Below are positions 14,137-36,757 of a DNA stretch of 64,000 nucleotides, one piece after another. Source of the DNA: an uncultured delta proteobacterium (lineage in GTDB: Bacteria > Desulfobacterota > Desulfomonilia > UBA1062); contig CAVVYZ010000020.1 of assembly GCA_963752595.1 (NCBI GenBank), positions 1 to 64,000 of the forward strand, written 5' to 3'. The notes beneath the pieces were generated by a model. That model was given only the letters and a program-made list of their open reading frames with translations. It was not told the origin of the DNA and ran no database searches. The stretch's first letter is position 1. Each line of letters begins with the position of its first letter. The position numbers and the translations under genes are program-made.

Positions 14137-14153
14137 GGAAAGAGGTTGCCAAT

Positions 14154-14801
14154 ATGAAGAAATATCTATCGATACTGGCGCTCGCGCTGGTGCTCGTGCT
14201 GCCCGCGGCCTGCTCGAAGGCCCCGGAGCAGTCGGCACAGAAGGCCGCGGGTGCCGAACAGGCCGGCCCGTACAAGGTGGGGCAGGTAAAGATGAACCCG
14301 CACCCTGCGAGCCTGGAAGGCAAGACCGTGGTGCTCAGGTGGAACGGAAAGTTCAACGGCGACAAGGTCCTCGACAGAGTGGCCGAGCTCCTCGCCCAGA
14401 AAGCTCCGGGAGTGAAGATCGTCAAACTGTGGACAGTGGATCCGGCAACAGCCAATTCATCGGAAGGGGCTGAAAATAGCCTGAAGTTTGCGGAAAGCGC
14501 TCTCTCCCAGAAACCGGATCTCGTGATCGCGGCATCTGCCGATTGAGGGCACTGCACCCCATGGCTGGTAGTTGACCAGCTCAACATTGAAAAAAAGGGC
14601 GTACCCACGGTCACCATAACGACGACGGCATTTAGCGACATGGTCAAAACGACTCTGGATGAGCAGGCTATTGCGGAGATGGCGATAGTTACAGTGGAGC
14701 ATCCCATTGCAGGCCGGAGCGCCGAGGAAACGAAAAAGTTTGCTGACGCGGAATTCCCCAAAATCTTCAAGGCTGCAACGGCATGGCAGCCCACGAAGTA
14801 G
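14154..14801 (+). CDS. UGSC-family selenoprotein 1 (short lipoprotein, D-U-G-H-C), 215 aa
   Basis: In-frame TGA 14544-14546 followed by GHCTPWLVVDQLNIEKKGVPTVTI..., open to TAG 14799-14801; lipobox LPAAC; SECIS-like hairpin. Confidence 0.85.
14564..14580 (+). promoter_or_regulatory. Putative bacterial SECIS hairpin
   Basis: GCTGGT-AGTTG-ACCAGC, loop begins 23 nt after the TGA. Confidence 0.75.
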
Positions 14802-14804
14802 GGA

Positions 14805-15368
14805 ATGGGAGATACAGTCATGAACGCTACTAATATGGGTACAATAGAGCGGAGCACGGTGGGGAAGGGCTGGATAGGGAAGGTAGTCGGCAACGGGTAC
14901 TTGATCCTTGCCTTCCGACTGCTACTGGGTGCAACATTTATGCTGTCCGCTGTGGGCAAGCTCGTGGACATCGAGCGCTACTCGGTGGATGCTGTATACA
15001 ACTTCGCGGTCCTGCCGCTGTGGCTGGCCCGCCCGGCAGGCCTGATCATGCCGTTCATCGAGCTCGGCATCGCGCTGGGCCTCATCTTCGGGGTCCTGAC
15101 CCGGCTGTCTGCGCTCGGTGATGCGGTGTTGAGCCTGATCTTCTTCTTAGTCAAGCTGCACGTGCTCTTCATCCAGGGCAGGGCCATCGACTGCGGGTGC
15201 TTCGGCGCCATCATGACCACGATGGCCTCCGTAACCATCTACATGGACATCCCCATGCTCGTCATGGGCCTGATCATCATGTTTGCCCCGGCTTCTTCTC
15301 GTCACTGGATTTCCCTTGCCCGGTTCGTGCCTCAGAAGCTGAAGGACAAGCTGGATTTAGTCTGGTGA
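14805..15368 (+). CDS. MauE/DoxX family membrane protein
   Basis: Four or five TM segments, FMLSAVGKL, IDCGCFG motif. Confidence 0.85.
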   Translation: MGDTVMNATNMGTIERSTVGKGWIGKVVGNGYLILAFRLLLGATFMLSAVGKLVDIERYSVDAVYNFAVLPLWLARPAGLIMPFIELGIALGLIFGVLTRLSALGDAVLSLIFFLVKLHVLFIQGRAIDCGCFGAIMTTMASVTIYMDIPMLVMGLIIMFAPASSRHWISLARFVPQKLKDKLDLVW

Positions 15369-15518
15369 CGTGCGGTGACTATGCTGCGGTGACCCGGATA
15401 TAACAAATGCATAGTGAGAAGGAAGGCAAATCGTGAAGGCAAAACCACAAGATCGTGTTTGTGGGTGAGAAGCAGGGATTTTAAAATATTTTAATTAGAC
15501 GAAAGGATGGTAGGGAAA

Positions 15519-17279
15519 ATGAAGAAAAGGCAGATGTATAGTCTTACGGCTTTCATGATGATTGCCGCATGGCTCTTAATGCCGGCATGCGCCTCGGCCA
15601 AGGAGGCGGTGCAGCAATGGGAGATGGTCAATCCGGCAGGGGTGATCAAGGTTACGCATATCAAGATGGCGCCCAGGATCGATTCCCTCGAGGGAAAGAC
15701 CATAGCGCTCAAGTGGAACCAGAAACCAAATGGGAACCTCTTCCTTGACCGGATCGCAGAACTGCTCAAGGAAAAGTATCCCACCTCGAAGATCGTGAAG
15801 ATATACGAGTTGGAGCCCACGACCGTTCCCCAGAGTGCGAACGATGCAGATTCAATGCGCAAGGCCAGGCTCATTGCGAAGTACAAGCCGGATATCGTGA
15901 TCGGCGCCCAGTGCGATTGAGGGAGTTGTACATCATGGCTGGTAGGTGACCAGCTCTCAGTCGAAAAATTGGGTATTCCGACCGTAACCGTTTCAACGAA
16001 CGAGTTCATCGGGCTCGCAAGGACGAGCCAGGTAAGCTTCGGTGCTGCTGACATGGCTTTCGTCATCGTGCCCCATCCTCTGGGAATGATACCCAAGGAC
16101 GAGGTAAGAGCCAAGGCGGATGCAGCTTTTAACGACATAGTGAAGGCAGCCACAGCTTGGAAACCGAGCAGAACAACGATTCCTGGTGCCAACAAGGCCC
16201 CGTATCCTCTGGAGACGGTAAAGTTCAAGGGCACCTATGCGCAGTTGAACAAGATGTTCTATGACAACAAATGGTCCCTGGGCCTGCCCATCATCCCGCC
16301 TACGAAAGAGGCGGTAGCGAAGATGCTCAAAGGCACGACCCACAAGCCGAGCGAGATCGTCTGGGATGCCATTCCCCCGAGGAACGGCGTCGTCACGGTC
16401 GAGCTCGTTGCGGCAACAGGCGTCATGGCCGGTGCCAAACCTGAGCACATGCCCCTGCTTCTGGCCATTGTTGAGGCCATGAAGGCCACCCCGCAGAAGG
16501 GGAGGGAATGGCGCGCGCTGACCACCACGACCCACCACACGGCCCCGCTGATCATCGTGAGCGGCCCGATCGTCAAGGAGCTTGGCATCGCCTACGGCCT
16601 CGGAGCCATGGGCCCCGAGATGCCGGTGAATAACGCTGTCGGATACTTCGTCAACCTGCTCGGCGACGTGGCCGGCGGTTCCCGTCCGCCCGATGCGGAC
16701 AAGACGACCCAGGGCTGGGTGGGCAACATCATCGCCACGGTTGCAGGCGAGAACATCGACGCCAACCCGTGGAAGGAGAGCTGGCCGGTTGAGAAGGGCT
16801 TCAAACCCACCGACAACGTGGTCATCTATGCCGGCGGAGGAATCCCCGTCAACCAGAACGACCATGCCAGCGTCGATCCCAAGGACCTTGCCGAGGTCAT
16901 GGCGTATACCATGAACGCCATAGGCGTGAGCCGGTGCTTCCAGGACGGCGGCGTCTGGATGCTGGGTCCGGAGCATGCGGCAACGCTCGCCAGCAAGGGA
17001 TGGACCAAGAAGGACATCCGGGAGTTCCTCTACAAGAACGCCCGTGCACCTTACAGGGTACAGCCCGAAATGGTGGATGGGAAGTGCGCGGCAACCGCGT
17101 GCTGCCCGCCTGCCAGCTTCGGTCCGGTGACGCCCGATACCATGATACCGCTGTGCAAGAACCCGGATCAGATCGACATCGTAGTCGTAGGCGGTCCCGG
17201 TAAGCAGAGCCAGTGGTGGTCGTATACGGAGTTCGGTCCGTTCCCGCCCATCATGACGAAAGTTGACAAGTGGAAGTAG
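15519..17279 (+). CDS. UGSC-family selenoprotein 2 (C-D-U-G-S-C) fused to a large uncharacterised C-terminal domain, ~586 aa
   Basis: ORFs 15507-15920 and 15969-17279 are in the same frame, joined by TGA 15918-15920; signal peptide; SECIS-like hairpin; start could be 15507. Confidence 0.88.
15938..15954 (+). promoter_or_regulatory. Putative bacterial SECIS hairpin
   Basis: GCTGGT-AGGTG-ACCAGC; only the loop differs from the other copies. Confidence 0.75.
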
Positions 17280-17289
17280 TATAAAGCTC

Positions 17290-17326
17290 TTTTCGCCCTC
17301 TCCGGCACATCCGGAGAGGGCGAAAA
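17290..17326. terminator. Perfect 16-bp hairpin, probable terminator or processing site
   Basis: TTTTCGCCCTCTCCGG-CACAT-CCGGAGAGGGCGAAAA. Confidence 0.7.
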
Positions 17327-17499
17327 CCTATAAAAAAGAACGGATTATAGCAAGACAGATGAAAAAAAGGTTTGAAAAAAAGGAAGGGCAGATAAGGGAA
17401 AGGCTCCTTTACTGCAGCCGGATGACTTGTCTATGAGCACCACGGGCAGGACTTCTTAAAAAATGTACCTCACCAAAAGATAGGAACGGAGGATTATAA

Positions 17500-18499
17500 A
17501 TGTCGAAAGAGAATGACAGCAACGACAATGGAATCACCAGGCGTGGATTCATTAAGAACACCGCATTGGCCGGTGCGGGAGTCATGCTCGCGGGCTCAGG
17601 CATTCTCGGCGGATCCAAGCCGGCAATGGCTGCAAGCAGCGGCGATGCAGTGGTCGACGAGATCTACCGCCAGGCCATGGATTTTCATCTGCACTGCGGC
17701 CCGGATCTCATCGAGCGGAAGTATGATGACCTGACCCTGGCCAAAATGTGCATGGACACCGGTCTGACCGGGCTTCATGCTCAAGTCCCACCTCACCTGT
17801 ACCGCCGAGCGCGTGTTCTTCCTCCGCAAGCATTTCCCCAAGATCGAGACCTTCGGCGCCATGGCATTGAACCGCACCTGGGGCGGGGTGAACGTTAATG
17901 CTGTGGAAGTAATGTCAAAGGTCAAGGGCCACCATCTCCGGCAGGTCTACTTCCCGACTCAGGATGCCGAGAATGACGAGAAGACCAAGCTCAAGGAACA
18001 TGTGAAGGTGTTCGACGACGGCAAGCTCACCAAGGAGTCCATGGAGGTCATCAAGTTCTGCGCCAAGAACAAGCTGATCGTGAGCTCCGGCCATCTGTCG
18101 ACTCAGGAAGCGTTCCATCTCGCGGAAATGGCCAGGGAGATGGGCTGCGAGCGAGTGGTATGCACGCACGTCACCAATAGAAGCACCGAGATGAGCGTCG
18201 AAAACCAGAAAAAGATGGCGAAGATGGGCGTCTACCTCGAGTACAACTACCTGCAGATAAACTATTACAAGCAGGACCCGAAGAGCTCGAAAGGCCAGTC
18301 TCCCGAGAAGATTGCCAAATGGGTCAAGGAAGTCGGCGCAGACAACATCATCTTTGCCACCGACTTCGGGCAGGTGGATAACCCGACCACGCCTGAGGGC
18401 ATGAGGATGCTCATTGCCGAGATGCTGAAGCAGGGCATCTCCAAGGAAGATCTCATCAAGATGACCTCCACCAACCCCTACAAGATTTTGAGGGTATAG
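17500..18499 (+). CDS. Tat-exported metal-dependent TIM-barrel hydrolase (DUF6282-like), one frameshift
   Basis: ITRRGFIK Tat motif; DFHLHCGPD, KSH, SSGHLS, TH, TDFGQ motifs; frameshift near 17772. Confidence 0.75.
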
Positions 18500-18583
18500 C
18501 GTAACAAAACGTCAAGGAACAAAACCGCTGTGCCTCTCGATTAAGGGGCAGCGGGACAATGAATAAAAAAGGAGACAGGAATA

Positions 18584-20305
18584 ATGAGGAAGGTATTGCA
18601 GAAACATCTTCTCACATGCATCGTTCTCATGCTGATGCTCAGCCTGCCAATGCTCTCATTCGGCAAGGAGACGGCACAGAGCTGGGAACTGGTGAACCCC
18701 CAAGGGATCGTTAAGGTTGAGCCCATGAAGGTCAACCCGCACCCCGCGACCCTGGAAGGCAAGACAGTGGTGCTCCGCTGGAACGGCAAGCACAACGGCG
18801 ACAACGTTCTCAACCGTGTTGCCGAGATGCTGAACGAGCAGGTTAAAGGCGTCAAGATCATCAAGTTATGGGAAAAGTATCCCGGATACGGTGACGGTGA
18901 GCAGCAGCCAGGAAAAGAGCAAGGACATCGCGAAGAAAGTCGCTTCGTTCAAGCCCGACCTGGTCATTGCTTCACAGACCGATTGAGGGTCCTGTACCTC
19001 ATGGCTGGTAGTTGACCAGCTCAATGTCGAAAAACTGGGTATCCCCACGGTCACCATATCAAGCACCGAGTTCGTCGAGCTCGCAAGAACGACCATGCGG
19101 AGCGTCGGTGCTCCGGATATGGCATTTGCTATCGTTCCCCACCCGCTGGGAGGGATCAAACTGGATGAAATACGTGCCAAGACAACCGCCGCTTCCCGGA
19201 GATCATGAAGCTGGCAACAAAGTGGAAGGCCGAACGCCGCGAGCGTCAGCTGCGGCAAAGACGCCGTATCCTGCGGAGAGATTTACGTTCAAGGGACAGG
19301 TCCGGATGTCACCGACCTTTATTACAAGGAAAAGTGGAGTGACGGCCTGCCCATCGTTCCGCCCACAACCGATCGCGTGAAGAAGATGCTGGCCGGGACA
19401 AGCATGAAGCCGCAGTGAGGTCATCGGCATTATCCCTCCCCGCATGGGTGTTATCACGGTTGAGCTGGCAGCAGTGCATGCCGTGATGGCCGGGGCCAAG
19501 CCCGAGTATTTCCCCGTTATCTTGGCCGCGGTCAGAAGCCCTGCTCGACCCGAAGCACGACTGGCGGTCGGCAACTACGACGACAAACCCCTGTGCTCCG
19601 TTGATCGTGGTCAATGGGCCCATCGTCAAGGAGCTGGGCATCCAGTACGGAACTGGTGCATTCGGGCCCGGCCCGGCTGCAAGCCCTAACGCCACCATCG
19701 GCCGCGCCGTCAACCTCATCATGGATATCGTTGGCGGATCACAGCCCCCGTCCCCTGACAAGACCACGCTGGGGAGCCCTTTCAGCTACACCATGGTGCT
19801 GGGAGAGAACGAAGGTGCTAATCCCTGGGCCCCGCTGAACGTACAGATGGGCGCCAAGAAGGGTACGAGCACGGTCACCGTGTTCGAGGTAAGGAGCTTT
19901 ATCAACTTCAACCTCCACGAGCCCAATACCGCTGAAGGCCTGCTCCATCCGATGGCAAAGACCATTGCCCCGGTAATAGGCCTCGCCGAGAACGGGTTCG
20001 AGTGCAAGGAAGGCGTGAAGGAACTTCTCATCTTAAGCCCCGAGCACGCGGATACGATAAAGAAAGACGGCTGGGACCTTGATCGCGTCAAGAGCTATAT
20101 CCACGAGAACGCGCGCATCTCCATGGCTGACTTCAATATCCGCAACAACAACCGCAAACCGCTCTGCCGGCAGGATGAAGCCAACCCCACTGTCGTAAAA
20201 GGACCGGGGAATTATCTGATTATGGTTGCCGGCGGTGAAGGCAAGCACTCAGTCTTTCTGGAAACCACCAGATACGACCCGGTGACAAAAGAAATCAAGG
20301 AGTAG
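18584..20305 (+). CDS. UGSC-family selenoprotein 3 (T-D-U-G-S-C), long form, several frameshifts
   Basis: TGA 18984-18986 in conserved context; colinear with paralogs after correcting indels near 18882, 19190, 19300, 19410 and 19535. Confidence 0.8.
19004..19020 (+). promoter_or_regulatory. Putative bacterial SECIS hairpin
   Basis: GCTGGT-AGTTG-ACCAGC. Confidence 0.75.
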
Positions 20306-20332
20306 CAATAATCTTAAATCCACCTCTTCATT

Positions 20333-20365
20333 GGTCCCCTCCGTAAAGCGAGGGGACCGTTTTTT
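20333..20365 (+). terminator. Rho-independent terminator
   Basis: GGTCCCCTC...GAGGGGACC followed by T-tract. Confidence 0.7.
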
Positions 20366-20376
20366 CCAAAGTGGGA

Positions 20377-20516
20377 CGCCCGAACCGGGCACGGAGTTTG
20401 GGAAAAAAACAGGAAGGAAGGAGTTCACCAATGAAAAGATCGATGAAAGGTTTTCTGGGACTGGCCATTTTGGGTTTCCTGGTCATGTCCCTGCCCGCTT
20501 TCGCTTAGGAAGCGGT
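20377..20516 (+). repeat. 140-bp near-identical direct repeat (leader + RBS + signal peptide), copy A
   Basis: Matches 34952-35091 with about 3 substitutions. Confidence 0.9.
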
Positions 20517-22188
20517 ACAGAATTGGAAGCTCGTCAAACCAGAGGGGGTCGTCAAGGTCGAGCCGGTCAAGCAGAACCCCCATCCGGCGAGCCTGGAGGG
20601 GAAGACCGTGGCCCTGCGGTGGAACGGCAAGCAGAACGGGAACAACTTCCAGGAGCGAGTGGCCGAGCTCCTCAAGGAAAACGTAAAGGATATCAAGATT
20701 ATCAAACTCTACGAGGTGGAGCCCTGGATGAACATCACGGCGGGCCCGCCCTATATGTCGGCGGCGGATGCCGATCGGATGGCCAAGACCATCGCAAAAT
20801 ACAAGCCGGACCTGGTCATTGCCTCGTATGCCGATTGAGGGTCCTGCACCTCATGGCTGGTAGTTGACCAGCAAAATCTCGAAAAATTAGGCATTCCGAC
20901 CGTTACCGTTGCATCGAGCGAATTTGTGGGCCTGGCCAGGAACACGGCCAAGAGCCTGGGGGCCCTGGATGCGTGTTTCGTTACCGTTCCCCACCCCATG
21001 GGGCTGATCCCCCTGGCGGATATTCGCAAAAAGGCCGACGAGGCCTTCCCGGAGATCCTGAAGGCGGCCACGACGTGGAAGCCGAAGGCAGTCAAGGCCG
21101 TCGCGAACAAGGCCGTCTACCCGGCGGAGAGGATAACCTTCAAAGGGACGCAGCACGACGTGAGCGAATTCTTCTTCAAGAATGACTGGACCCTGGGCCT
21201 GGAGATCGTCCCGCCCACGCCGGAGCGTGTCGCCGCGATGCTTAAGGGCACGACCCGCAAGCCTTCCGAGGTCATCGGCGCCGTTCCCCCCCGGGATGCG
21301 ATCCTGACCGTGGAGATGGCCGCGGTTTACGCCGTCATGGCCGGATGCCGGCCGGAACACATGCCTGTTCTCCTGGCGGCCCTGGAAGCAATGGTGGATC
21401 CGGCCCATGGCTGGCGGGCATCCACGACCACGACCAACGGCGTGGCGCCCCTCTTCGTCGTGAGCGGCCCCATCGTCAAGGAACTGGGGATCCAGTCCGG
21501 TACCGGTGAACTCGGCGGCGGTCAGACGTCGAAACCCAACGTCGCCATCGGCCATGCCATCAATCTCGTCGGAGACGTCCTCGGCGGGTCCAAGTCCCCC
21601 GCCCCCGATCAGTCGACCATAGGCCAGACGGCGAACATCATTGCCATGGTCGTGGGCGAGAACGAGGCGGAAAACCCCTGGGAGCCCTTCAGCGTCGAGC
21701 AGGGCTTCGACCGTAACAAGAGCACCGTGACGATCTTCGGTGTCCGGAGTTATGCCAACCACAACCTCGGCGACGTCAAGACGGGACAGGACTTCCTGAC
21801 CGCCATGGGGTACGTCATGGGTGCCGTGGGCGCCGTCGGTGAGACGACAAAGCCTTGCGCCCCGGGGAACCGGGAACTGGTCCTGATGTGCCCGGAACAC
21901 GCCTCCCTCGTCATCAAGAGCGGGATCAAGACCAAAAAGGAGGTTCAGTCGTTCCTCTTCGAGAAGAGCAGGATCACCCGTTCCCTCCTGTTGACCCGGT
22001 ACTCGGCGAACCCCGGGAAGCTCGCCAACACGATACCCTGCTACAAGGGGTGGGAGAAGTGGGATACGATTCCCCTGGTCGCCAGGCCCGAGGACATCCT
22101 CGTCGTCGTTACCGGAGGACCCGGGAAGCACTCCGTGTACATGAGCACCAATGGGTACGCGCCGGTGACGAAGGAGATCAGAAAGTAA
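20431..22188 (+). CDS. UGSC-family selenoprotein 4 (A-D-U-G-S-C), long form, ~585 aa, with an extra in-frame TAG at 20506-20508
   Basis: Single reading frame from ATG 20431 through TAG 20506 and TGA 20836-20838 to TAA 22188; SECIS-like hairpin. Confidence 0.8.
20856..20872 (+). promoter_or_regulatory. Putative bacterial SECIS hairpin
   Basis: GCTGGT-AGTTG-ACCAGC. Confidence 0.75.
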
Positions 22189-22359
22189 TCCCTGAAGTGG
22201 GATGGGTCCAAGTGACTGCAGTCGGGACATCCCGTGGATAAGGAGTGAAGTTTTAAATTTCGGCTCTCGTTACAGACCTGTAACGGGAGCCGATAAATTT
22301 AGAATTCAGTCAAGGAGGAAAAGTAATAAAGATGCGAAACATCAAATGGCTGCTGTTTT

Positions 22360-22962
22360 CGCCGCGAGCGTCACTGCGGCAAAGAAGCCGTACCCTGCCG
22401 ACCGGTTCACGTTCAAGGGCACGGTCACGGATGTCACCGACCTTCCACAATCGAGCGGGTCAAAAAGATGCTTGCCGGCACGAGCCGGAAACCGGGCGAT
22501 GTCCTGGGCATCATCCATCCCCGCATGGGAGTCATCACGGTTGAGCTGGCAGCAGTCCATGCAGTCACGGCCGGTGCAAAGCCAGAGTACCTTCCCGTCA
22601 TCGTAGCGGCGGTCGAAGCACTGCTCGACCCGAAGCACGACTGGCGCTCCGCCACCACGACCACCAACCCCTGTGCGCCGCTCAACGTGCAGATGGGCGC
22701 CAAGAAGGGCACGAGCACGGTCACCGTGTTCGAGGTTCGGAGCTTCATCAACTATATTTTTGAAAATGCCCGCATCTCCATGGCAGACTTCAATATCCGG
22801 AACAACAACCGCAAGCCGCTCTGCCGGGAGAATGAAGCCAACCCCACGGTTGTCTCCTCACCCAACTGTTATCTGGTGATGGTTGCCGGCGGCGAAGGTA
22901 AGCACTCGGTCTTCCTGGAAACCACCAGATACGACCCGGTAACGATAGAAATCAAGAAATAG
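22360..22962 (+). pseudogene. Internally deleted partial duplicate of selenoprotein 3 C-terminal domain
   Basis: Segments nearly identical to 19237-20305 joined across three deletions; no Sec domain or signal peptide. Confidence 0.8.
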
Positions 22963-22987
22963 AACTCAATAAGTACACACCTCCATA

Positions 22988-23022
22988 GGTCCCCTCCGCA
23001 ACAGGAGGGGACCGCTTTTTTT
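22988..23022 (+). terminator. Rho-independent terminator (homologous to 20333-20365)
   Basis: GGTCCCCTCC...GGAGGGGACC followed by T7. Confidence 0.75.
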
Positions 23023-23055
23023 CGATTCGAAAGTAGAGGTATGATTGGTTTCGTC

Positions 23056-23335
23056 AAGAAGCCGTTTTCAGAGAACCGGTCACACCGGCCGGAATTTTGG
23101 AGTGTTTGCAAGTCATAGTACGGGCATCTCTCCCGTCAAGCGTCATTCCTTCGGGTGAGTGGAGCTGCATGTACTGCCAGAGCGAAAAGGGCCTTTGTTC
23201 ATGAAAATCTTCGGGCAGCATGCTCGACGGATACTGCCCGGGCAGGTGATATGCTCTGGACGTAAGAACAGTTACTCAATCTCCACAATAAAACCACAAA
23301 ATGATCACGATATCATCATAATCGGGAGGTAGAAA
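23056..23335 (+). repeat. Diverged ~250-280 bp upstream regulatory repeat, copy A, ending in a 4 x 11-bp box array
   Basis: Aligns with 34651-34903 (AAGAAGCCGTyTTCAGAGAACCGGTCAC...GGTGAGTGGAGyTGCAT...AATCTCCACA); CA boxes at 23284, 23295, 23306, 23317. Confidence 0.8.
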
Positions 23336-23947: not shown

Positions 23948-24007
23948 GCGGAAAAGGACCATTGATTTAAACTTTAACCCTGAAGAAAACCTTGAAAGGA
24001 GACACCT

Positions 24008-25572
24008 ATGAAAAAGGGGAATAAAGATGGGAGCATAAGTAGGCGGGGGTTCATCAAGGGGGCGGCTGCCGGTCTTGGTGCATTATCACTCATGAATCTT
24101 GGAGTCAAGGACTGCACGCGGCACAACCTCCGAAGAAATGGGATCGTGAGGTTAACATTCTCATATTGGGAGCGGGAGCTGCCGGGTGCATGGCAGCGAT
24201 TACGGCAAAAGACGCCGGAGAATCCGATCTTTTAGTGTTAGAAAAATGGGCCTATCCGGGAGGTGCTGCAGCATTGTCATCCGGAACGATCCTTGCCGCG
24301 GGAACTAGTTTACAAAAAGAAAAGGGAATCCAGGATTCAAAAGAACGTTGGTTCAATGATGTCTTGAGACTTTCCGAAGGTGGTCTCAATCCGGCGATAG
24401 TGAAAGCAACAATAGATAATGCCCTTGATTTTTTTAATTTCTTGTACGATTCAGGCATGAGATGGTCAACTATAGATCCCCTTCCCGGATACAGCGCCGA
24501 TCGTTGTTATCGCGATGCAGGCGGTGGCGCCAAACTGATGAAGACCGTCCTTGCACAAGTAAAGAAAAGAAACATCGAAATTCTTCTCGAAACAAAAGCA
24601 ACTAAACTTATCGTGGATTCTTGCGGAGGAGCTTATCCTCAGGGCGTAGTACTTGGCGTCGAGTGCGTGAGAGAAAATGGAAAGGTTTTAAATATCAAGG
24701 CAAAAAAAGGAGTTCTCATTTCTACAGGCGATTTTTCTGCCAATTCTAAATATATGGAGAGCCATTTCCCCCAAATGAAAGGAGCTCTCTTTGTAGGGCA
24801 TCCCGGAAATACCGGGGACGGCATTAAAATGGCTCAGAAATTAGGTGCCGACATTACGGGCTACTTCCCTGAAGGATCACCGCATTGCGTGGAATTTGCC
24901 CCCGGGAAGGCAGTCCTGTGGTGCCGATATGATCTCCTTTCCCGTGATGGACTTATCCTTGTGAACAAAGCTGGAAAGCGCTTCTGTGATGAGATTACAA
25001 GGGGCCATTACACCCCCTTGCTCCCCGAGGTTCAAAGTCAAGAGGATGGTTTCTTCGGTTGCATATTTGACGAAGCGATTGTCAAAACAATAAAAGAAGA
25101 TCAACGTTTTAAAACAAACTTCCGAGGACGTGAAAAGCTATTTAACGATGGATTAAAAGGAGATGGATTCATAATCAAAAAAGCGGATACCTTACCGGAA
25201 TTAGCCCAGAAACTCGGCATGAATCCAGAGGGACTCGCCAAAACAATAGCGGCCTATAATGAAGGCGTGTCCAAAAAGAAGGATGAATTTAACCGAGAGC
25301 CAAAGTACCTGATGAAGATCGATACGCCTCCATTTTATGGCTGGAAAGGTGTTATCGGTGTTCCATCCACACGAGGCGGATTGAGAATGGATGCACAAGC
25401 GCGGGTCCTTGATCCGGACCTTAATCCCATTCCGAGGCTCTACGCTGCTGGGCATACAATTGGTGGATATACAAATGAATCAAGCTACCGCAGCGGCTGG
25501 CACCTCATGAACGCCTTTGTCTTTGGGCGAATAGCAGCAAAGGAATTGCTTGCAAAAAAGCCCTGGGCATAA
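24008..25572 (+). CDS. Tat-exported flavocytochrome c flavin subunit (FAD_binding_2), one frameshift
   Basis: ISRRGFIK Tat motif; frameshift near 24118 joins to GAGAAG; STGDF, NTGDG, LVNKAGKRF, RLYAAG motifs. Confidence 0.88.
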
Positions 25573-25597
25573 ATTGACAGTATAGAGAATCTCTTTT

Positions 25598-29168: not shown

Positions 29169-29271
29169 TATATGAGCCTTATGCCGTGGGAAGCCGGGAA
29201 AACTACATTGATACGGATAAAGAGCAGCACCATCCCTCCCCCGAGAGACGGGAAGACTTCCCTGCTCCTGC

Positions 29272-30075
29272 TCAGAGATAGCTGTGCAGCCCCGGAAGGT
29301 AGTTCACCCCGAAATAGGTGAACAGAACGCTCACCAGGCCTATCAGGGAGAGCGCCGCAACCCTTCTCGTCACCCCGCCTCCCCTGATCCTCTCATGGAG
29401 CACTGCCGCATAGATGAGCCAGGTGATGAGCGCCCACGTCTCCTTCGGGTCCCAGCCCCAATATCTTCCCCACGCCATCTGGGCCCACACGGAGCCGGTG
29501 AGGATGCCCGCGGTGAAGAAGATGAATCCGATCGTCACACAACGGTAGAACGTGGTCCCCCAAAGGATTTCCCCCGGTAAGAACCCGTTGCCCCTCAGCA
29601 GAAAAATCCCGAAGACCGAAGCCACGAAGAAGGATGCATACCCAAGGAAACAGGTGATCACATGGATGGCGAGCCAGTTGCTTTTGAGCGCCGGGATCAG
29701 GGGCTGGATACTGTTTTCGACCCCGGGAGAGAAAGAGGCATATCCGAGCATCAGGGCCGCGGCAGGCAGCACAAAGGCCAGGACTTTATCCCTGGCCTGC
29801 TCTTTAACGCCGAGCAGGGCAATGAGCACCGTTGCCCAAGAAAAGAAAACCAGGGACTCATAAAAATTTGACAGGGGCACGTGCCCGATCCCATGTGCAT
29901 AGGACTCGCTCCACCGGATGATGATTCCATTCGCATGGAGCGCGAAACCGACCACAGCAATCCAGAAGGCAAGGCGGGCCATCCCCTTTTTTCCCAGGAT
30001 CAGGCCCAGGAGCAACAGGCAGAAAGCTCCGAGGTAGATATAGATGACGATGCCGATAACAGTACCGCTGCTCAT
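29272..30075 (-). CDS. ccsA: Cytochrome c biogenesis system II heme ligase CcsA/ResC
   Basis: WAQMAWGRYWGWDPKETWALITW (WWD domain), GLHSY. Confidence 0.92.
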   Translation of the reverse strand: MSSGTVIGIVIYIYLGAFCLLLLGLILGKKGMARLAFWIAVVGFALHANGIIIRWSESYAHGIGHVPLSNFYESLVFFSWATVLIALLGVKEQARDKVLAFVLPAAALMLGYASFSPGVENSIQPLIPALKSNWLAIHVITCFLGYASFFVASVFGIFLLRGNGFLPGEILWGTTFYRCVTIGFIFFTAGILTGSVWAQMAWGRYWGWDPKETWALITWLIYAAVLHERIRGGGVTRRVAALSLIGLVSVLFTYFGVNYLPGLHSYL

Positions 30076-31187
30076 ACGCTGTCTCCTTCACCCTGAGCAT
30101 ACCCTGCGGGTCCCTTTCGCGCGGCCGTATGGGAGGTGTCGGAAGCATCTCCCTTCCCCGTCTTGGGTCCCTGGCCGGTTCGGGGGACCACTAACACGAG
30201 CAGGAGGCTCACCAGGAAGAGCGCACCTCCGGCAGCCGCCACAGGAGCGCCGGGGTCGCGCTTTACCCCGATGCCGGTGGCATACGAGGCCTCCAGCTTT
30301 TCCAGCGAGAAGGTGTAGGGCCGGAAGCTCGCAGGGTCGAACCCCGGCATCTTCTCAAGGAGACCGGGCATCCGGGCCTTGATGGCGTCGATGTCCTTGA
30401 ACACCCACAGGTACCGCTCCCCTGAGGAGTCACTGATCAGGAGCTTCACTGCCGGCCCCGCGTGCATGAGATCGTCCCAGACCTTCACCACACGTGCCTG
30501 GGTGCCGGGCTGTGAAAGGGGGATGGCCTCTCCTTGCATCACCTTGAAAAACCTCTTTCTGTTGCCGACTTCAACAGACATGGATGCCGACAGGGAAGGC
30601 CGAAAGCTCTCCTGATAGAAACCGATGCCTTCGAAGCTGGCTGGATGATTGACCATCACCCTGGCCCGACCGGCAACATGACCACCTTTAAAAAACGAAA
30701 GGTTTGACACATATTCCCTGGGCATTCCACTCTTGTAATAATCCACATTGAAAGAGTCGCATCGGACAGAGAACCCGAGGTCCTGTGAGTATCCCTTTTT
30801 CACCACCGCCTTGGAAGTGCTCGTTCCCACCGGGATATCCATGAAGCCGTCCAGCTTCAAGGCGCCCAGGGCATAGCCCGCGATTATCAATACGATGCCG
30901 CCGTGCATGAGCAGCATGAGCAGGCTTCTCCTCCTGAGGTTAAGCCATCGCCTCATGCACAGAACGAGATTGACGCACAGGAGAAACCCGGCCCCCATGA
31001 ACAGGATAGAATGAAATATGTCGTACGGGGAGAGCAGGGAGAGGAGCCAGGGGGCCGGGGCATGTACACCGGATGCAGCCCCGCCCCCCTGGGGAAACAC
31101 GGTTCCGATCAGACACAGTACGACAACCAGGAGGAGGAGCGAAACCGTGAGCTTTAATGAGGAGAACACCTTGAGCATATATTTCAT
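30072..31187 (-). CDS. resB: Cytochrome c biogenesis protein ResB/CcsB
   Basis: SSLKL..IGTVFPQ, H-containing TM, VNHP..FYQ, DPG motifs. Confidence 0.88.
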   Translation of the reverse strand: MKYMLKVFSSLKLTVSLLLLVVVLCLIGTVFPQGGGAASGVHAPAPWLLSLLSPYDIFHSILFMGAGFLLCVNLVLCMRRWLNLRRRSLLMLLMHGGIVLIIAGYALGALKLDGFMDIPVGTSTSKAVVKKGYSQDLGFSVRCDSFNVDYYKSGMPREYVSNLSFFKGGHVAGRARVMVNHPASFEGIGFYQESFRPSLSASMSVEVGNRKRFFKVMQGEAIPLSQPGTQARVVKVWDDLMHAGPAVKLLISDSSGERYLWVFKDIDAIKARMPGLLEKMPGFDPASFRPYTFSLEKLEASYATGIGVKRDPGAPVAAAGGALFLVSLLLVLVVPRTGQGPKTGKGDASDTSHTAARKGPAGYAQGEGDSV

Positions 31188-31211
31188 TTCTATTCCCTTC
31201 TACCCTCGCTC

Positions 31212-33717
31212 TCACATGGCCATGAACACCGCCCAGAAGATCAGGGCGGTCAGCGAGAGGCCGAGGATCACGCTTGCGATGCCGAACACGCCTGCGAAGA
31301 GCTGGGAACCAGTGCCCGGGCCTGCGCACTTGATCTCATCGAGCCGGTTTTCCGCGAGGATGCGCTCGTACTCCAGCGGACGCTCGTCTTGAGGGCCTCG
31401 AGAGTGTACCTGCCCGTGAACACGTTCCTCTCCAGCGGGAACTTGTCCGGTACGAGATGGTTGTTGAAGAAGTGGATCGTGAAGATGAACACCGCTGCCA
31501 GGAACGCCTCCTCGGAGTGGGCCAGGTGCACGATGTTGATCATCCATCCGGGCATGAAGTACGACGAGAGCTCGGGTATCCACATGATGACCCCGGAGAG
31601 GCCGATGACGAACATGCCCCAGAATACCGCCATGAAATCGAACTTCTCCCAGTAGGTCCACCGGTCGAACTGCGGCTTCTCTCCCCGTGTTGAAGAACCA
31701 TCTGAACATGCCCAGGCAGTCCTCGATGTCCTTGAGCCGTGGGAACAGGGAGTCGGGCCCGAAGAGCCTTCCCACCCATCCCTTGACCTTGAAGCTGGGA
31801 ACAGGAATTTGAGCGACAGCCAGCAGGTGTACAGGAACAGGGCGCACATGGCAGCCGCGCTGATGCGGTGCACGAGTGCCGCGCCCGCTGGCGCCTCCCA
31901 TCAGGGCCATGAATGCCTTTGCCCACGAGGCGTCGGTGTACTTGATCGGGAACCCCGAGATCACCACGCCGAAGAAGGAGAGGATGAGCACCACGTGCAT
32001 GACCCTTTCCCGCATACCGAACCTTCTCACATACTGACATCCCTGGTCTTCAGGAAGCTCATGCTTCGCTTCCAGGCCTCCCTTGATCAGGCAGCTCTTT
32101 TCCGCATATGCCTTGCGCCACCAGAGGAGCGAGTGGGCCCAGAAGAAGAGGAACACCCCTGCCAGGAGCGCGATCATGAACTTCTTGGCCAGGTACAGCC
32201 CCAGGAACCCCTTCGGGTCTTCCGGGTCAGGGTGGGCCACGTACGACACGAAACGGGGATGAAATCCCTCGTGGCACTTCCCGCACGTCTCTACCAGAGT
32301 TTGAGGGTTCAGGGCGGAAGCGGGGTCGTTCGCGGGCAGGATGTTGTGGGCAAGGTGGCAGTCCGCGCAGCCCGCAACCTTATCGGGGTATCCGAGGGCC
32401 ATCGCCTTGCCGTGATAGGTCTCTCCGTATGCACTGACCGCCATGGGGAACACCCCGTAGCGGCCTGCCCCGCCCCCTTCCTTGTGGCACGAGATGCACA
32501 GGTTGGTGTAGTACTCCCGCTTGTCGGCCATGCCCTTGTCCGTGGAGGCAAAGACAGGCGTATTGTGGGTGCCGTGGCAGTCACTGCACGAAGCGGCATC
32601 CTTGTTTCCCGCCAGGACCTTCGCCACATGCCCCTTCATCACGTACTTGTCCTTGTCGCTGTGGCACTTCAGGCAGGCAGCGATCCCCGAGGCCTTGCCG
32701 CTCGCGGCCTTCACGGCCTCTTCGGGGTGGATATCGGTGTGGCAGTTGCAGACACGAGAGCTTCGCTTTCACCGCGTGGAAGCTCTTCGAGTATTTCTTC
32801 TCGATATCCTGGTGGCATACACCGCAGGAGGTGAGCGCTGGCTTCTGCTGCTTCTTCATGTGCAGGGCGAGGTCCGTTATGCCGCTATGGCAGACGGTGC
32901 AGCTCAATTTCCCATGGAATGTCTGCGCAAAAGGCTTCTCATATTTTGGTCCGGAGTGGCACGAAGTGCAGTCTGCAATCGAGAGTGCGGGTCCCTGAGG
33001 GGCAGGGGCCGCTTTAGGCTTCAGGATCTTTGGTGCCGGGGCCTCCCGAGGATGGATGCCGGCGTGGCACTGGGCGCAGGAGAACTTCTTCACGGTCGCG
33101 TGGAACCCCTGCTTCTGAATGTCCTTGTGGCAGGTGAGGCAGGATGCCGTCTCGACCGGCTCGGCCCCCCGCATGTGCTTCGAAATCTCGGTCACACCCT
33201 TGTGGCAGACGGAGCACTGAAGCGCCGCGTGCTTCGTCTGGGAAAAATACTTCCCGTACTCGGGCTTGGAGTGGCACGCCGTGCAGTTCGGCGCAATGCC
33301 CGCCGCTTTAGCCGGGGCGGCTTTGCCCGAAGCTGCAGGAGTTTTCGCATCGGAAGCCTTGCCGGGGGCTGAGCCCGCTTTGACTTCTGTTTCCTTGCCG
33401 GGAGTCTCCGGCGCCTTCGATTTTTGCGGATCGCCCGAGAGCATCTGCTTGTGGATCGCGAGGAACTTGTCGGAAAGGGAGATCTTGCCCTGTCCATGGC
33501 ACATCTGACATTGCATCATCGTCATGCCCTTCGTATCCGGATGGGTTTCCGGAAGAACCTTGGCGACGTCAGCATGACAGGCCGTACAGTCTCCCGGCTT
33601 TTGACCGGGGCCCGCCATCACTATTGAACTCCAAAAGAGTATAGCGATGCAAAGGATGAGGGAGAGGATGAAATACGTTGAAAGATGCCTTAACTGAGAG
33701 TGCATGTCTATACCCAT
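31212..33717 (-). CDS. Multiheme cytochrome c fused to C-terminal cytochrome b domain (CbcL-like), frameshifted
   Basis: 14 intact CxxCH plus one broken by a frameshift near 32750; membrane domain with FDRWTYWEKFDFMAVFWG and HSEEAFLA..IHFF. Confidence 0.85.
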
Positions 33718-33858
33718 GGAGTTGCCTCCTCCTGAGAGATGACTTAGAAGTTTTCTTACCTGCCCATCTTACGCGGCAAACTAGATCGGGTTCAGCTGCC
33801 GCAAGATTGTAAAACCAAACCCTCAGCTTGAAAGCGTAAGGTGACTTGTTTATATAAA

Positions 33859-33916
33859 AACCTACCCCTTAATTTTGAAGAAATTGTGAGCATTATGTGG
33901 AATTCCAGAGGAGATT
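33859..33916 (-). promoter_or_regulatory. 4 x 11-bp box array plus -10-like TAGGTT upstream of the cytochrome/heme operon
   Basis: Minus strand AATCTCCTCTG-GAATTCCACAT-AATGCTCACAA-TTTCTTCAAAA; boxes at 33910, 33899, 33888, 33877. Confidence 0.65.
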
Positions 33917-34221
33917 TCCTATCGCTTTCTTACGGCATGTCAATGGAACGGTCCCCTCCCGGATGGGAGGGGACTCATTACTTTTGCCTTTTTCAACAAG
34001 TATTAACATGAAGGATAGCGGGATAAGCAGGGATAGTTACATTAAAGGGACTTCGTTGGAGTTTTTGATTTATAACGAAGTGGTCTAAATTGAACGAGCT
34101 TATCGAGTCAGCCCACAGTTCACAGCGGAGTTGTTTTATGAGGCCATTTGTAGAGGCTCTATGCTTCCTGTTGGTATTTTGCCATTTGGGGATGTGCTTG
34201 AATCTCTCTTAGGGATAAATT

Positions 34222-34567
34222 CCCCGCAGCTTGCTGCGAGAGGGAGTGAGTGATAGAGCGGATGAGTGAGCATATATCTCCACAAGAGTCATAATGTATC
34301 GGTATTACTCTACCATATAGTATGTCCTGCGAAATATCGAAGGGTGGTATTTTCTGAAGAAGTAGACAATGCATTGAAGAAGGCGTTGTGGGGTGGCGAA
34401 TTTTGGATAGATGGATATTATATCAACACGGTCAGCAGGCATGGGAATGAGGATGTTGTCCGCCAATATGTAGAAGGGCAGGGCAAAAAGGAAGAGTATA
34501 AAAGGCTTCATAGTGAGCAGGTACGATTGTTCTAGGCACCGGATACCCCGCAGCTTGCTGCGGGGTA
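34222..34567 (+). mobile_element. Non-autonomous IS200/IS605 remnant (tnpA with central deletion)
   Basis: HKSHNVSVLLYHIVCPAKYRR joined directly to LWGGEFW..GY..YVEGQ without the HUH motif; flanking CCCCGCAGC-TT-GCTGCG hairpins. Confidence 0.85.
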
Positions 34568-34650
34568 GTTATAGTAGCGGCAATTATTCATCTGAATCCT
34601 AAACGGTTCTTGCCCAGGCTTATGTTCATTTCTTTAATTGCCGCTGCAAT

Positions 34651-34903
34651 AAGAAGCCGTCTTCAGAGAACCGGTCACCCCGGCGAATCCTGAAGTGCCT
34701 GGAATCCCACGGTACTGTACTGGACGCTCTCACGGCAAGTATTATTCCTTCCGGTGAGTGGAGTTGCATATGCTGCCGGTCGAAAAAAGAGCCATTGCGC
34801 ATATAAATCTTCGGACGCAAGCACCGGATGTAAAAGAGATATTCAATCTCCACATAAAAAACACAAAATGATCATATTGTCATCAAATATCGATAGGTAC
34901 CTT
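34651..34903 (+). repeat. Diverged upstream regulatory repeat, copy B, ending in a 4 x 11-bp box array
   Basis: Aligns with 23056-23335; CA boxes at 34851, 34862, 34873, 34884. Confidence 0.8.
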
Positions 34904-34951
34904 CCAAATTAAGGTCCTCCGCCTCTCATCGGGCGGGGGGACCTTGTAGGG

Positions 34952-35091
34952 CGCCCGAACCGGGCACGGAGTTTGGGAAAAAAACAGGAAGGAAGGAGTT
35001 CACCAATGAAAAGATCGATGAAAGGTTTTCTGGGACTGGCCGTTTTGGGTTTCCTGGTCATGTCCCTGCCCGCTTTCGCCAAGGAAGCGGT
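34952..35091 (+). repeat. 140-bp near-identical direct repeat, copy B
   Basis: Matches 20377-20516. Confidence 0.9.
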
Positions 35092-36757
35092 GAGGGAATG
35101 GGAGATCGTCAACCCGCAGGGAACGATCGCCATCAAGGAGATCAAGCTCGCCCCGCGGCTGACGACGCTGGAGGGAAAGACGATCGTCCTGCGCTGGAAC
35201 GGCAAGCACAACGGGGACAACTACCTCAACCGCGTCGCGGAGCTGCTGGCGGAAAAGGTTCCGAGCGCCAAGGTCATCAAGGTCTATGAGCTGGACAAGT
35301 CGACCATCAAGATAAGCAGCTCCAATGCCGAGTCGGAAAGGATCGCGGGCGTGATCAAGGGGCTGAAGGCGGACCTCGTCATCGCCTCGCAGGCCGATTG
35401 AGGGTCCTGCACCTCATGGCTGATAGTTGATCAGTCCAATTGCGAAAAATTAGGAATCCCGACCGTTACCGTTACCACCGATGCATTTATCTCGCTTTCC
35501 CGGGCAAGCGGTGAGAGCATCGGCCTGGCCGATATGGCCTTTGTCGAAGCCAAGCACCCGATGGGCATGCTGCCGCTGGCAGAAATCCGAGCCCGTGCGG
35601 ATGAAACCTTCAACGACATCATTCAGAAGGCGATTCACTGGAAGCCTTCACGGACCTCTATTGCCGGCCTGGGGAAAGCTCCCTACCCGGCCCCGCGGGT
35701 CAAATTCAAGGGGACCTACGCGGCCCTGAACAAGATGTTCTACGACCAGAAGTGGTCGCTGGGCATGCCGATCATCCCGCCGACCCCCGAAGCCGTGGCA
35801 GCCATGCTGAAAGGCACCACCCTTAAACCCGGCGAGGTCGTCTGGATTGTGCCTCCACGGATGGGTCAGTTGACCGTCGAGCTGGCAGCCACGATAGGAG
35901 TGATGGCAGGCTGCAAGCCGGAGCATATGCCCCTGCTGCTGGCTATGGTGAAGGGCTTCAGCAATTCGGACTTCGACTGGCGCGGCTCCACGACGACTAC
36001 GGGCCCGACGGTTCCGATCGTGGTCATCAACGGCCCGATCATCGACGAGCTGGGAATCGGCTACGGGACCGGCGTCTTTGGCGGTGAGCACCCGGTGAAC
36101 ATCGCCCTGGGTTACTTCGTGAACCTGGTCGGGGATATCGTCGGCGGATCCGTCGCCCCAGATCCGGACAAGAGCACCCATGGGACGAGGGCCGATATTT
36201 CCGCCCTGGTTATAGCCGAAAACGAAAAGGCAAACCCCTGGAAGCAGAGCTACGCCGTGGAAAAAGGCTTCAAGCCCACGGACAACGTAGTTTCCGTTTT
36301 CTCGGGCTATTCGGGCAACAACAACGTGGACCATACGAGCACGACGGGTAAGGCCCTCCTCGACACGATCTCCTTCGGGCTGGCCGGCGCCGCCTCGGGT
36401 ATCACGAGCTGCTTTACCGATCTTGACAAACCGTACAGCCCGGGCAATTCGGTGAGGTTCGCCTTCATTTTCCTCGGACCCGAGCATGCGGCTACCGTGT
36501 TCACCGATTTCAAGACCAAGCAGGCCGCCGAGGAGTACGTGGTCAAGAGGGCCGTGGGCCCCAATTGGACCTATGCGCCCAATCGGTGCGTTCCTCCGAA
36601 GGATTTCGGGCCGGTCAACGCCGATACGATGCTTCCCCGCTTCACGAATGCGAAACAGATCCACATCGCGGTCACGGGAGGTCCGGGAAAACAGACACAG
36701 TTGTTCCCTTCGTTCGTGACGAATAAGCGGGTCGTCTCGGTCGTCGTCGATAAGTAA
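35006..36757 (+). CDS. UGSC-family selenoprotein 5 (A-D-U-G-S-C), long form, ~583 aa
   Basis: TGA 35399-35401 in frame with both flanking ORFs; signal peptide; SECIS-like hairpin with compensatory change. Confidence 0.88.
35419..35435 (+). promoter_or_regulatory. Putative bacterial SECIS hairpin (covariant copy)
   Basis: GCTGAT-AGTTG-ATCAGT: G-C to A-U pair swap and G-C to G-U relative to other copies. Confidence 0.78.

Follow-up and report, generated by a model that had tools for sequence, protein, structure and literature searches.

The window analysed here, a 64-kb stretch of DNA from an uncultured delta proteobacterium, contains five genes of the UGSC family (Pfam PF24696), each with an in-frame TGA and a hairpin downstream of it. 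This raises the question of whether the hairpins are the signals by which selenocysteine (Sec) enters these proteins or a by-product of the peptide that they encode. On the sequence evidence assembled below, we consider it highly probable (about 90%) that all five are canonical bacterial SECIS elements, predicted to bind SelB and to direct Sec into the U-x-x-C motif.

Five UGSC genes with an in-frame TGA

14154–14801, + strand: UGSC copy 1, short form, 215 aa with the TGA read through, lipoprotein-like leader, motif D-U-G-H-C
14544–14546, + strand: in-frame TGA of copy 1 (predicted Sec)
15507–17279, + strand: UGSC copy 2, long form, 590 aa, D-U-G-S-C, TGA at 15918–15920
18584–20305, + strand: UGSC copy 3, long form, TGA at 18984–18986, broken by single-base indels in the assembly
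20431–22188, + strand: UGSC copy 4, long form, TGA at 20836–20838, in-frame TAG at codon 26 (20506–20508)
35006–36757, + strand: UGSC copy 5, long form, 583 aa, TGA at 35399–35401

By profile comparison, the five genes are members of a known but uncharacterised protein family. Copies 1, 2, 4 and 5 score 98–131 bits against PF24696 (cut-off 25); copy 3 also exceeds the cut-off, but is matched as two pieces. The best and sole NCBIfam match to the UGSC copies scanned was the NF041046 equivalog at 111–123 bits, narrowly below its cut-off of 125 with U scored as C. Two earlier reports (PMC1976440, PMC2398784) describe a U-x-x-C motif with an in-frame TGA, Cys homologs and fusion of the UGSC domain to a C-terminal domain of unknown function, and a thioredoxin-like fold has been proposed in the literature. 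The genes studied here share the motif, the in-frame TGA, the Cys homologs and the C-terminal fusion of PF24696/NF041046, but differ from the family as described in forming five paralogs within 23 kb and in carrying signal-peptide-like leaders. Gene callers would cut them at the UGA, and the annotation of all five is corrected here.

Compared with both intact relatives, copy 3 carries indels in seven places (near 18883, 19193, 19230, 19250, 19296, 19414 and 19534), and the TAG at codon 26 of copy 4 likewise lies in an error-prone assembly; the initial annotation had overlooked both. Four low-coverage DNA sequencing runs gave zero coverage over the copy 3 indels and the copy 4 TAG. Pyrrolysine at this TAG was rejected, as no PylS scored above the cut-off in the genome.

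A hairpin at a fixed distance from each UGA

14564–14580, + strand: SECIS-type hairpin 1, stem GCTGGT/ACCAGC, loop AGTTG at 14570–14574
15938–15954, + strand: SECIS-type hairpin 2, loop AGGTG at 15944–15948
19004–19020, + strand: SECIS-type hairpin 3, loop AGTTG at 19010–19014
20856–20872, + strand: SECIS-type hairpin 4, loop AGTTG at 20862–20866
35419–35435, + strand: SECIS-type hairpin 5, loop AGTTG at 35425–35429, stem GCTGAT/ATCAGT, in which a double change turns G-C into A-U

The 6-bp stem and 5-nt loop that had been reported after the TGA of all five genes were recovered by both pattern matching and coordinates. Scanning the window with GCTGGTAGNTGACCAGC gave exact matches at 14564, 15938, 19004 and 20856 and a match with three mismatches at 35419; a sixth, also with three mismatches, lies at 39085, behind no UGSC-family UGA site. 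Chance would yield 0.48 matches, and 0 of 100 shuffles reached six. Between each TGA (14544, 15918, 18984, 20836 and 35399) and its stem lie 17 nt, and the loop follows at 23 nt; the '23 nt' originally assigned to the hairpin is therefore the distance to its loop.

The paralogs share the peptide WL(V/I)(V/G)DQ over the hairpin. Within the 17-mer, copy 2 indeed differs in the loop alone (AGGTG; Val to Gly). Copy 5 has three changes, where two had been described. Two of them swap G-C for A-U at stem pair 5, one replacing Val by Ile and the other silent (GAC to GAT). The third turns the pair at the base of the stem from G-C into G-U (Leu to Ser), and G-U is frequent at this position among homologs (54/127).

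Silent sites point to selection on the RNA

The initial annotation had proposed selection on RNA structure within the coding sequence, with a SECIS role. The five paralogs, with their single double change, prove little in this respect; the support comes from 127 homologs. Our homolog set comprised the best 80 matches per scan, and its members are mutually related. At the aligned UGA codon it has 174 TGA, 35 Cys and 8 other codons; 127 TGA-bearing (Sec) genes were analysed, 112 of them of type LVVDQ. Codon choice in these 112 is nearly uniform: Leu is CTG in 111 (background 37%), Asp is GAC in all (54%), Gln is CAG in 111 (77%) and Val is GTA in 83 (14%). On a tree built without the hairpin codons, parsimony placed 0, 1 and 1 changes at silent stem codons +7, +10 and +11, compared with 30–52 at eleven flanking four-fold control sites (at least 99 rows) and 18–24 at five two-fold sites. 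The five inner stem pairs are intact in 126 of 127 genes as against 225 of 635 synonymous resamplings. Covariation within the stem itself is thin (4 cells). At locus L157 the stem has a purely silent change from C-G to U-A.

Loop bases 1 and 4, mostly silent third positions of Val codons, are A:U in 89, C:G in 13 and G:C in 11 of the 127 Sec genes, and unpaired in 14 (C:U in 10, C:C in 4). Watson–Crick pairing in 102 of the 112 LVVDQ genes compares with a mean of 70.6 and a maximum of 82 in 10,000 shuffles, and with 103 of 367 at other Val–Val pairs. Both sides changed in 27 cells (0/500 shuffles), and across 11 independent pairs 8.1 went the same way and 0 the opposite way (median p 0.008). 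GC drift was rejected as the cause, as G:C and C:G genes are no richer in GC3 than A:U genes. Positions 2–3 read G-(U/G) in 127/127 Sec genes versus 3/7 non-Sec genes. Across the homologs, silent stem sites are constrained and loop bases 1:4 covary, and the sequence data support conservation of the hairpin at silent codon positions through selection on the RNA. The homolog set is a clean case of RNA-level selection within coding sequence, readable from silent sites.

Folding energy and non-Sec homologs

Folding the 60 nt after each UGA, another suggested check, did not help: stability was no better than that of shuffles (z +0.5 to −1.4), and folding energy was dropped as evidence for the element. 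Minimum free energies were −13.4 to −17 kcal/mol for the 60-nt regions and −7.8 to −10.6 kcal/mol for +10 to +45; the 19-nt hairpin of copy 5, folded without its flanks, gave −6.5 kcal/mol, short of the −7.5 criterion for bacterial SECIS elements. The hairpin is absent from the 60-nt minimum-energy fold of copy 2, and with 30 nt of upstream sequence added it is outcompeted in copies 3 and 4 (probability 0.01–0.05). When folding began at +10, its probability was 0.98–0.99 in all five copies. An Rfam search with these hairpins returned zero matches at the gathering score. A conserved mini-ORF spanning the hairpin (ATG GCT GGT AGT TGA) was rejected, its start and stop being unconserved.

Equal conservation of the hairpin in Cys homologs had been named as evidence against a SECIS role, and here the outcome was mixed. 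Four of seven close non-Sec paralogs have lost the G-(U/G) loop and three have kept the whole hairpin; these three form one Cys clade (L054, L067 and L243), which retains stem and loop at 29–41% four-fold divergence from its Sec sisters. The strict motif occurs in 0 of 32 distant Cys homologs, in which the peptides differ. Another UGSC subfamily has a different hairpin, with a silent Ser codon that is AGT in 24/24 Sec genes and AGC in 15/15 Cys genes, a contrast confounded by the high GC of the Cys loci.

The loop type, not the stem, recurs across the genome

An N1-G-(U/G)-N4(-N5) apical loop is common to 12 of the 14 other selenoprotein TGAs of this genome; it follows 46 of the 12,882 Cys codons and none of the 1,316 TGA stops. 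In the proposed comparison with fdhA and other genes, only this loop type was common (GGUCU or GGUCC in the fdhA genes, GGUC in a deiodinase-like gene); stems differ, and spacings run from 17 to 25 nt. In fdhF-type GGUC loops, a G22–C25 pair caps the loop and U26 is flipped out. For hdrA, also proposed for comparison, the motif scan recognised no Sec-type gene in the genome, and the sole FlpD/MvhD match is without a TGA. The hairpin had been taken to define this organism's SECIS consensus. For the stem, the data do not support this: UGSC genes with the same stem occur in records that bear the names Thermodesulfobacteriota, Bacillota, Chloroflexota and Nitrospirota, and the stems of the genome's other selenoprotein genes differ. 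Judged by sequence, the UGSC stem is family-specific and present in several phyla, and only the loop type is common to the genome's other selenoproteins. The loop 1:4 rule was formulated after inspection of this genome's genes; out of sample, 30/30 PrxU genes carry AGTT (14) or GGTC (16), and only 8/26 SelD genes fit it.

A possible second hairpin enclosing the UGA

18984–19001, + strand: possible lower hairpin TGAGG/CCTCA of copy 3, enclosing the UGA
20836–20853, + strand: possible lower hairpin TGAGG/CCTCA of copy 4
35399–35416, + strand: possible lower hairpin TGAGG/CCTCA of copy 5

Pairing of TGAGG with CCTCA around the UGA, previously noted for copies 3–5, is complete there, and four of the five pairs additionally form in copies 1 and 2. 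In this hairpin the U of UGA would pair with the third, silent base of codon +5. Among the 127 genes that base is A in 115 and G in 9; the background for A is about 17%, and the bias holds across six different amino acids. This base changed 12 times on the tree versus 30–52 times at controls, and the mean pairing probability of the lower hairpin is 0.35 against 0.14 for resampled codons. RNAalifold on the homologs did not include the lower hairpin in the consensus structure, and double changes were neither possible nor seen in the homolog set; as a consensus structure it was rejected on both counts. Together, these data weakly suggest a second hairpin enclosing the UGA.

We think it rather unlikely that the UGSC subfamily uses a two-hairpin signal, combined with a selected capping pair over the G-(U/G) loop in the unrelated UGSC and PrxU families. 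If it did, the 5-bp UGAGG/CCUCA helix would conceal the UGA until unwound by the ribosome, and might give a pause or prevent misfolding between spacer and SECIS. The capping pair would then be a feature missed by the published consensus wording, and could sharpen selenoprotein gene finders.

Selenocysteine machinery

The genome encodes intact selA, selB and selD above profile cut-offs, selD with a TGA of its own, and the C-terminal half of SelB matches the solved SelB chains 2ply, 1lva and 1wsu (E 4e-32 to 6e-18). The tRNA-Sec gene (selC) was not found in the assembly by the Rfam model, ARAGORN (normal and relaxed), an anticodon-arm scan or BLAST with congener tRNAs; ARAGORN 'SeC' calls, including one of 95 nt on C16, lacked tRNA-Sec features and were rejected. 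The assembly is 84% complete, and EF-Tu is frameshifted in it too. Of 11 congeners, 10 have tRNA-Sec; of the 12 genomes of the genus three carry UGSC genes, and two of these three, G000 and G004, yielded no tRNA-Sec. In congeners G011 and G001, rnc adjoins selC, and rnc was likewise not found in the two genomes without tRNA-Sec, this assembly included. The absence of selC is most likely an assembly gap.

Weighing the alternatives

The hairpin might be a by-product of the peptide WLVVDQ and preferred codons (CTG, GAC, CAG), the UGA being decoded with another or no RNA signal. Most stem bases are indeed fixed by the peptide, the five inner pairs still form in 35% of synonymous resamplings, a Cys clade keeps the hairpin and the folds are not unusually stable. 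However, that rate falls far below the 126/127 observed, the rare codons GTA and GTT are preferred, the silent-site covariation of loop bases 1:4 is independent of GC3, and the stem change in L157 is purely silent; the AGT/AGC contrast over another hairpin in the other UGSC subfamily, GC-confounded as it is, also speaks against a by-product, which we regard as very unlikely.

Scarcely more credible is a real SECIS with a tRNA of the SelC*/tRNA-ReC type decoding the UGA as cysteine in this organism, or a decaying Sec system with genes turning into pseudogenes. SECIS-dependent UGA-to-Cys tRNAs are a precedent, described in PMC13582414; tRNA-Sec was not found in G000 or G004, and the assembly shows copies 3 and 4 disrupted. 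Yet selA, selB and selD are intact, 10/11 congeners have tRNA-Sec, no convincing UCA-anticodon tRNA of any kind was found in the assembly, the genome is 84% complete, even EF-Tu is frameshifted in it, and rnc, the selC neighbour in G011 and G001, was found in neither G000 nor G004. That the UGAs are true stops, with each hairpin serving two separate ORFs as a pause or coupling signal, is extremely improbable: an ATG in another frame follows the TGA after 14 nt in most genes, but it is missing in 14/127 and the short frame that it opens lacks a conserved stop, the Pfam UGSC domain continues across the TGA, and 35 homologs have a Cys codon aligned with the TGA.

We thus favour canonical SECIS elements. 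From what was observed directly (sequence, family, silent-site constraint and covariation, and the presence of selA, selB and selD), we infer the steps at SelB and the ribosome as follows. With the ribosome at the UGA, the 6–7-bp stem would lie outside the mRNA entry channel. The loop would be capped by the 1:4 base pair, leaving G-(U/G) exposed and the fifth base presumably flipped out, and winged-helix domains 3–4 of SelB would bind this exposed loop and deliver Sec-tRNA. The stem sequence would be set jointly by the peptide W-L-V-V-D-Q and base pairing, so that, whatever the host, the stem would characterise this UGSC subfamily, with the loop type as the feature common to unrelated selenoprotein genes. 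The covarying 1:4 pair and the constrained base of codon +5 offer ready silent mutations to probe the needs of SelB and the ribosome.

Comparison with known SECIS systems

The bSECIS consensus model of Zhang and Gladyshev (in the review PMC13188914) has an upper stem of 4–16 bp, a loop of 3–9 nt and a UGA-to-loop distance of 16–37 nt; further bacterial criteria are a G as loop base 1 or 2, commonly with G or U next to it on the 3′ side, and a minimum free energy of −7.5 kcal/mol or lower. The UGSC elements lie within coding sequence, just 3′ of an in-frame UGA aligned with Cys in homologs, with 23 nt from UGA to loop, an upper stem of 6–7 bp, a 5-nt loop with an early G in 5/5 copies, 60-nt minimum free energies within the limit, and SelA, SelB (with winged-helix domains) and SelD in the host. 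They resemble this model (general description in PMC4605307) in the coding-region hairpin, the G at loop position 2 and the SelA/SelB/SelD set of the genome. By contrast, no long lower stem lies beneath the upper one, and the UGA may instead sit inside a weak hairpin of its own; N1 of the review's loop pairs across three nucleotides, whereas the covarying pair here spans two (1:4). We found no description of a loop-capping pair in the literature searched, nor a paper on UGSC SECIS elements among the main texts of open-access papers.

The E. coli fdhF SECIS has an apical G23/U24 (PMC8659212), and that of Moorella thermoacetica has been solved bound to SelB WH3-4 (PDB 1WSU; PMC4605307). UGSC loops likewise present an apical G followed by U, but no equivalent of the bulged U17 is evident and the stem sequence is unrelated; the spacing is longer, with the loop G as base 25 counted from the UGA where PMC4605307 gives 'about 20'. 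On these sequence and structure criteria, the element is likely an ordinary bacterial signal, not special to this organism: as an instance it is a textbook case, and the selenoprotein family to which it belongs is already catalogued.

Hairpins follow the in-frame TGA of five UGSC genes

We consider the five hairpins in the window to be real and, with a probability of about 0.9, predict them to be canonical SECIS elements of a known selenoprotein family. A pattern scan of the window located the 17-base hairpin (stem GCTGGT/ACCAGC, 5-nt loop) as exact matches at 14564, 15938, 19004 and 20856, with 0.48 matches expected by chance, and once more at 35419 with three changes. An in-frame TGA precedes each of them. 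The initial annotation had placed the hairpin 23 nt past the TGA; this distance holds for the loop, whereas the stem starts after 17 nt in all five copies.

Features of the window
12300–13700 region: DESULF_POR1-like porin, beside the UGSC genes
13711–14136: rhodanese-like ORF, assigned by eye
14544: TGA of copy 1 (short form)
14805–15368: MauE/DoxX membrane protein
15918: TGA of copy 2 (long form, as are copies 3–5)
17500–18499: DUF6282 amidohydrolase with a Tat-like leader, frameshifted
18984: TGA of copy 3
20836: TGA of copy 4
22376–22962: fragment of the partner domain found at the C-terminus of long UGSC proteins
24166–25572: flavocytochrome c-like FAD protein, between copies 4 and 5
29272–33717, minus strand: two multiheme cytochromes and ResB/CcsB maturation genes, between copies 4 and 5
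35399: TGA of copy 5
37946–39484: stand-alone gene for this C-terminal partner domain; twin-arginine-like leader, UGA absent
58326–58706, minus strand: RNase P class A RNA (Rfam RF00010, 304.9 bits), elsewhere in the window

With the TGA read through, copies 1, 2, 4 and 5 score far over the Pfam UGSC cut-off and slightly under that of NCBIfam NF041046; the UGSC match of copy 3 is split in two pieces. The motif around the TGA reads D-U-G-(S/H)-C-T-(S/P)-W-L-(V/I)-(V/G)-D-Q, of which the hairpin encodes L-V-V-D-Q. Passages in four papers list UGSC as a selenoprotein family predicted by computation and without known function (PMC1976440, PMC2398784, PMC13188914, PMC9312934). Among the matches listed, the closest named records are a Syntrophaceae MAG and a Deltaproteobacteria MAG (87–89% identity). 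The neighbourhood at 12300–18499 suggests an exported redox system. Its gene order is retained in two congeners, G004 and G011.

Silent sites point to selection on RNA structure

Homologs were collected from genome and metagenome scans (the best 80 of 148 and the best 80 of 307 confirmed stretches) and from relatives. Of 277 domain hits, 14 missed the Sec column; with these removed and duplicates merged, 217 segments remained, with TGA (174), Cys (35) or another codon (8) at the Sec position. One segment containing N was dropped, and the analysis set comprised 127 TGA genes with L at codon +7 and Q at codon +11 after the TGA, the five window copies included.

The selection on RNA structure within coding sequence that had been proposed from the five paralogs is borne out by these homologs, not by the paralogs themselves. 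With one double change only, the five copies cannot separate RNA selection from a by-product of the peptide; folds of the 60 nt after each UGA were no more stable than shuffled sequences. Across the 112 LVVDQ genes, by contrast, the silent stem codons are nearly fixed (CTG 111, GAC 112, CAG 111), whereas in the rest of these genes the same codons have shares of 37%, 54% and 77%. A tree from which codons +1 to +12 were left out gave 0, 1 and 1 changes at the three stem sites, compared with 30–52 at eleven flanking four-fold sites and 18–24 at five two-fold sites. Of 127 genes, 126 retain all five inner stem pairs, versus 225 of 635 synonymous resamplings. The stem itself shows few double changes, namely the one in copy 5, a C-G to U-A exchange in homolog L157 that is silent throughout, and two A-U pairs at the base.

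Covariation is stronger in the loop, a feature absent from the initial annotation. Loop bases 1 and 4 fall on the third positions of two adjacent codons, Val-Val in most genes, and combine as A:U (89), C:G (13), G:C (11), C:U (10) and C:C (4), A at base 1 always occurring with U at base 4; positions 2–3 are GU (119) or GG (8) in all 127 genes. The 1:4 pair is Watson-Crick in 102 of 112 LVVDQ genes (shuffle maximum, 82), as against 103 of 367 other Val-Val codon pairs. After correction for relatedness, joint changes numbered 8.1 over 11 independent pairs, with no change in the opposite sense (median p 0.008); tests of loop 1:4 by single base type, with too few independent pairs, were not significant. 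GC3 as the cause was ruled out by comparison.

Seven close paralogs lacking the TGA served as non-Sec controls. The stem is broken and the loop G gone in a Gly pair, and the Ala and Ser paralogs have lost the G-(U/G) of the loop. A Cys clade of three keeps stem and loop fully, despite divergence from its Sec sisters at 29–41% of four-fold sites; equal conservation in Cys homologs, named beforehand as grounds for refutation, applies to three of the seven. This retention counts against a clean Sec-only signal. Part of PMC13582414 describes SECIS-like stems kept in Cys relatives of hydrogenases. Another stem forms in the WSVHD-type UGSC subfamily, where the silent Ser codon supplying the loop is AGT in 24/24 Sec and AGC in 15/15 Cys genes, a contrast confounded because the Cys loci are GC-rich. 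In relatives (L041:1084 in G004; L173:1087) the same cluster also holds a short paralog with Gly for Sec (D-G-D-R-C) that the window lacks; its broken hairpin is a natural negative control.

The lower hairpin, a TGAGG/CCTCA pairing enclosing the UGA, is perfect in copies 3–5, as initially noted. Opposite the U of UGA this pairing would place the third base of codon +5, an A in 115 and a G in 9 of the 127 genes; these codons specify Ser, Ala, Pro, Gly, Thr or Leu, and the site changed 12 times on the tree. Two of the five pairs fail in 17–19% of sequences, no compensatory change was seen in the collected TGA genes, and the RNAalifold consensus omits it. It cannot exist while UGA occupies the A site, and we regard a functional role as unlikely.

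The stem is not an organism-wide consensus

We compared 14 other selenoprotein TGAs of the same genome (G000), a motif-picked part of its selenoproteome that falls into the FdhA/Fdh-like, PrxU, deiodinase-like, SelD, HesB and UXX-star families. Stems vary among them, and the spacing ranges from 17 to 25 nt; the loop type is shared, 12 of 14 having a stem of at least 5 pairs that closes N1-G-(U/G)-N4(-N5) with N1:N4 paired. This rule, written after sight of these genes, fits 0.36% of Cys codons and none of 1,316 TGA stops. Out of sample, AGTT or GGTC loops occur in 30/30 PrxU genes, again at silent sites, but the rule fits only 8/26 SelD genes; the loop type is therefore common, neither universal nor organism-specific. 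The GCUGGU/ACCAGC stem, proposed as this organism's SECIS consensus, is instead, judged from sequence, a feature of the UGSC subfamily across phyla among the matches listed. Seven formate-dehydrogenase-type genes of G000 carry an in-frame TGA (C1:274855, 279982, 284284; C9:296013; C15:218842; C18:11450; C23:77394), six with loop GGUC(U/C).

Broken genes and a missing tRNA-Sec

Single-base indels interrupt copy 3 at seven places that lie within one open frame in two congeners, and codon 26 of copy 4 is TAG, against Lys in copy 5; no PylS over the cut-off was present in G000. Public contigs gave no coverage of either the indels or the TAG. Decay of these single copies is less likely than sequencing error, because EF-Tu and several fdhA genes of the assembly are likewise frameshifted. 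The assembly thus looks indel-prone, and its broken genes alone are no proof of pseudogenes. Frameshifts are numerous across G000, EF-Tu and fdhA included (for example, C20:148265–149500). In a Mailhella UGSC gene (L070:3301), TAG replaces the Gln codon within the hairpin (GAC TAG), with pairing kept as G-U, through either error or pseudogenization.

selA, selB and selD of G000 are all over their cut-offs; selD has its own TGA, and SelB is full length, its C-terminal half matching solved SelB winged-helix chains. tRNA-Sec was not found in G000 (assembly 84% complete), whereas 10 of 11 congeners have it. We read its absence as an assembly gap shared with G004, since rnc, which adjoins selC in G011 and G001, has no match in these same two genomes. 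An integrase-like ORF at the 3′ end of selC in G011 (L269:5788–6795) and a partial second copy of selC in G009 suggest that integration may take place at this gene.

Comparison with known SECIS elements

In the SECIS structures solved for E. coli and Moorella, the capping pair spans two bases, in agreement with the UGSC loop 1:4 pair. The loop pattern as worded in a passage of one review pairs across three bases, whereas the UGSC pair spans two (PMC13188914). G-U is common to the UGSC hairpin and the E. coli fdhF loop as given in part of PMC8659212, and the UGSC hairpin falls within the bounds that sections of PMC13188914 and PMC4605307 set for bSECIS spacing, stem, loop, apical G and energy.
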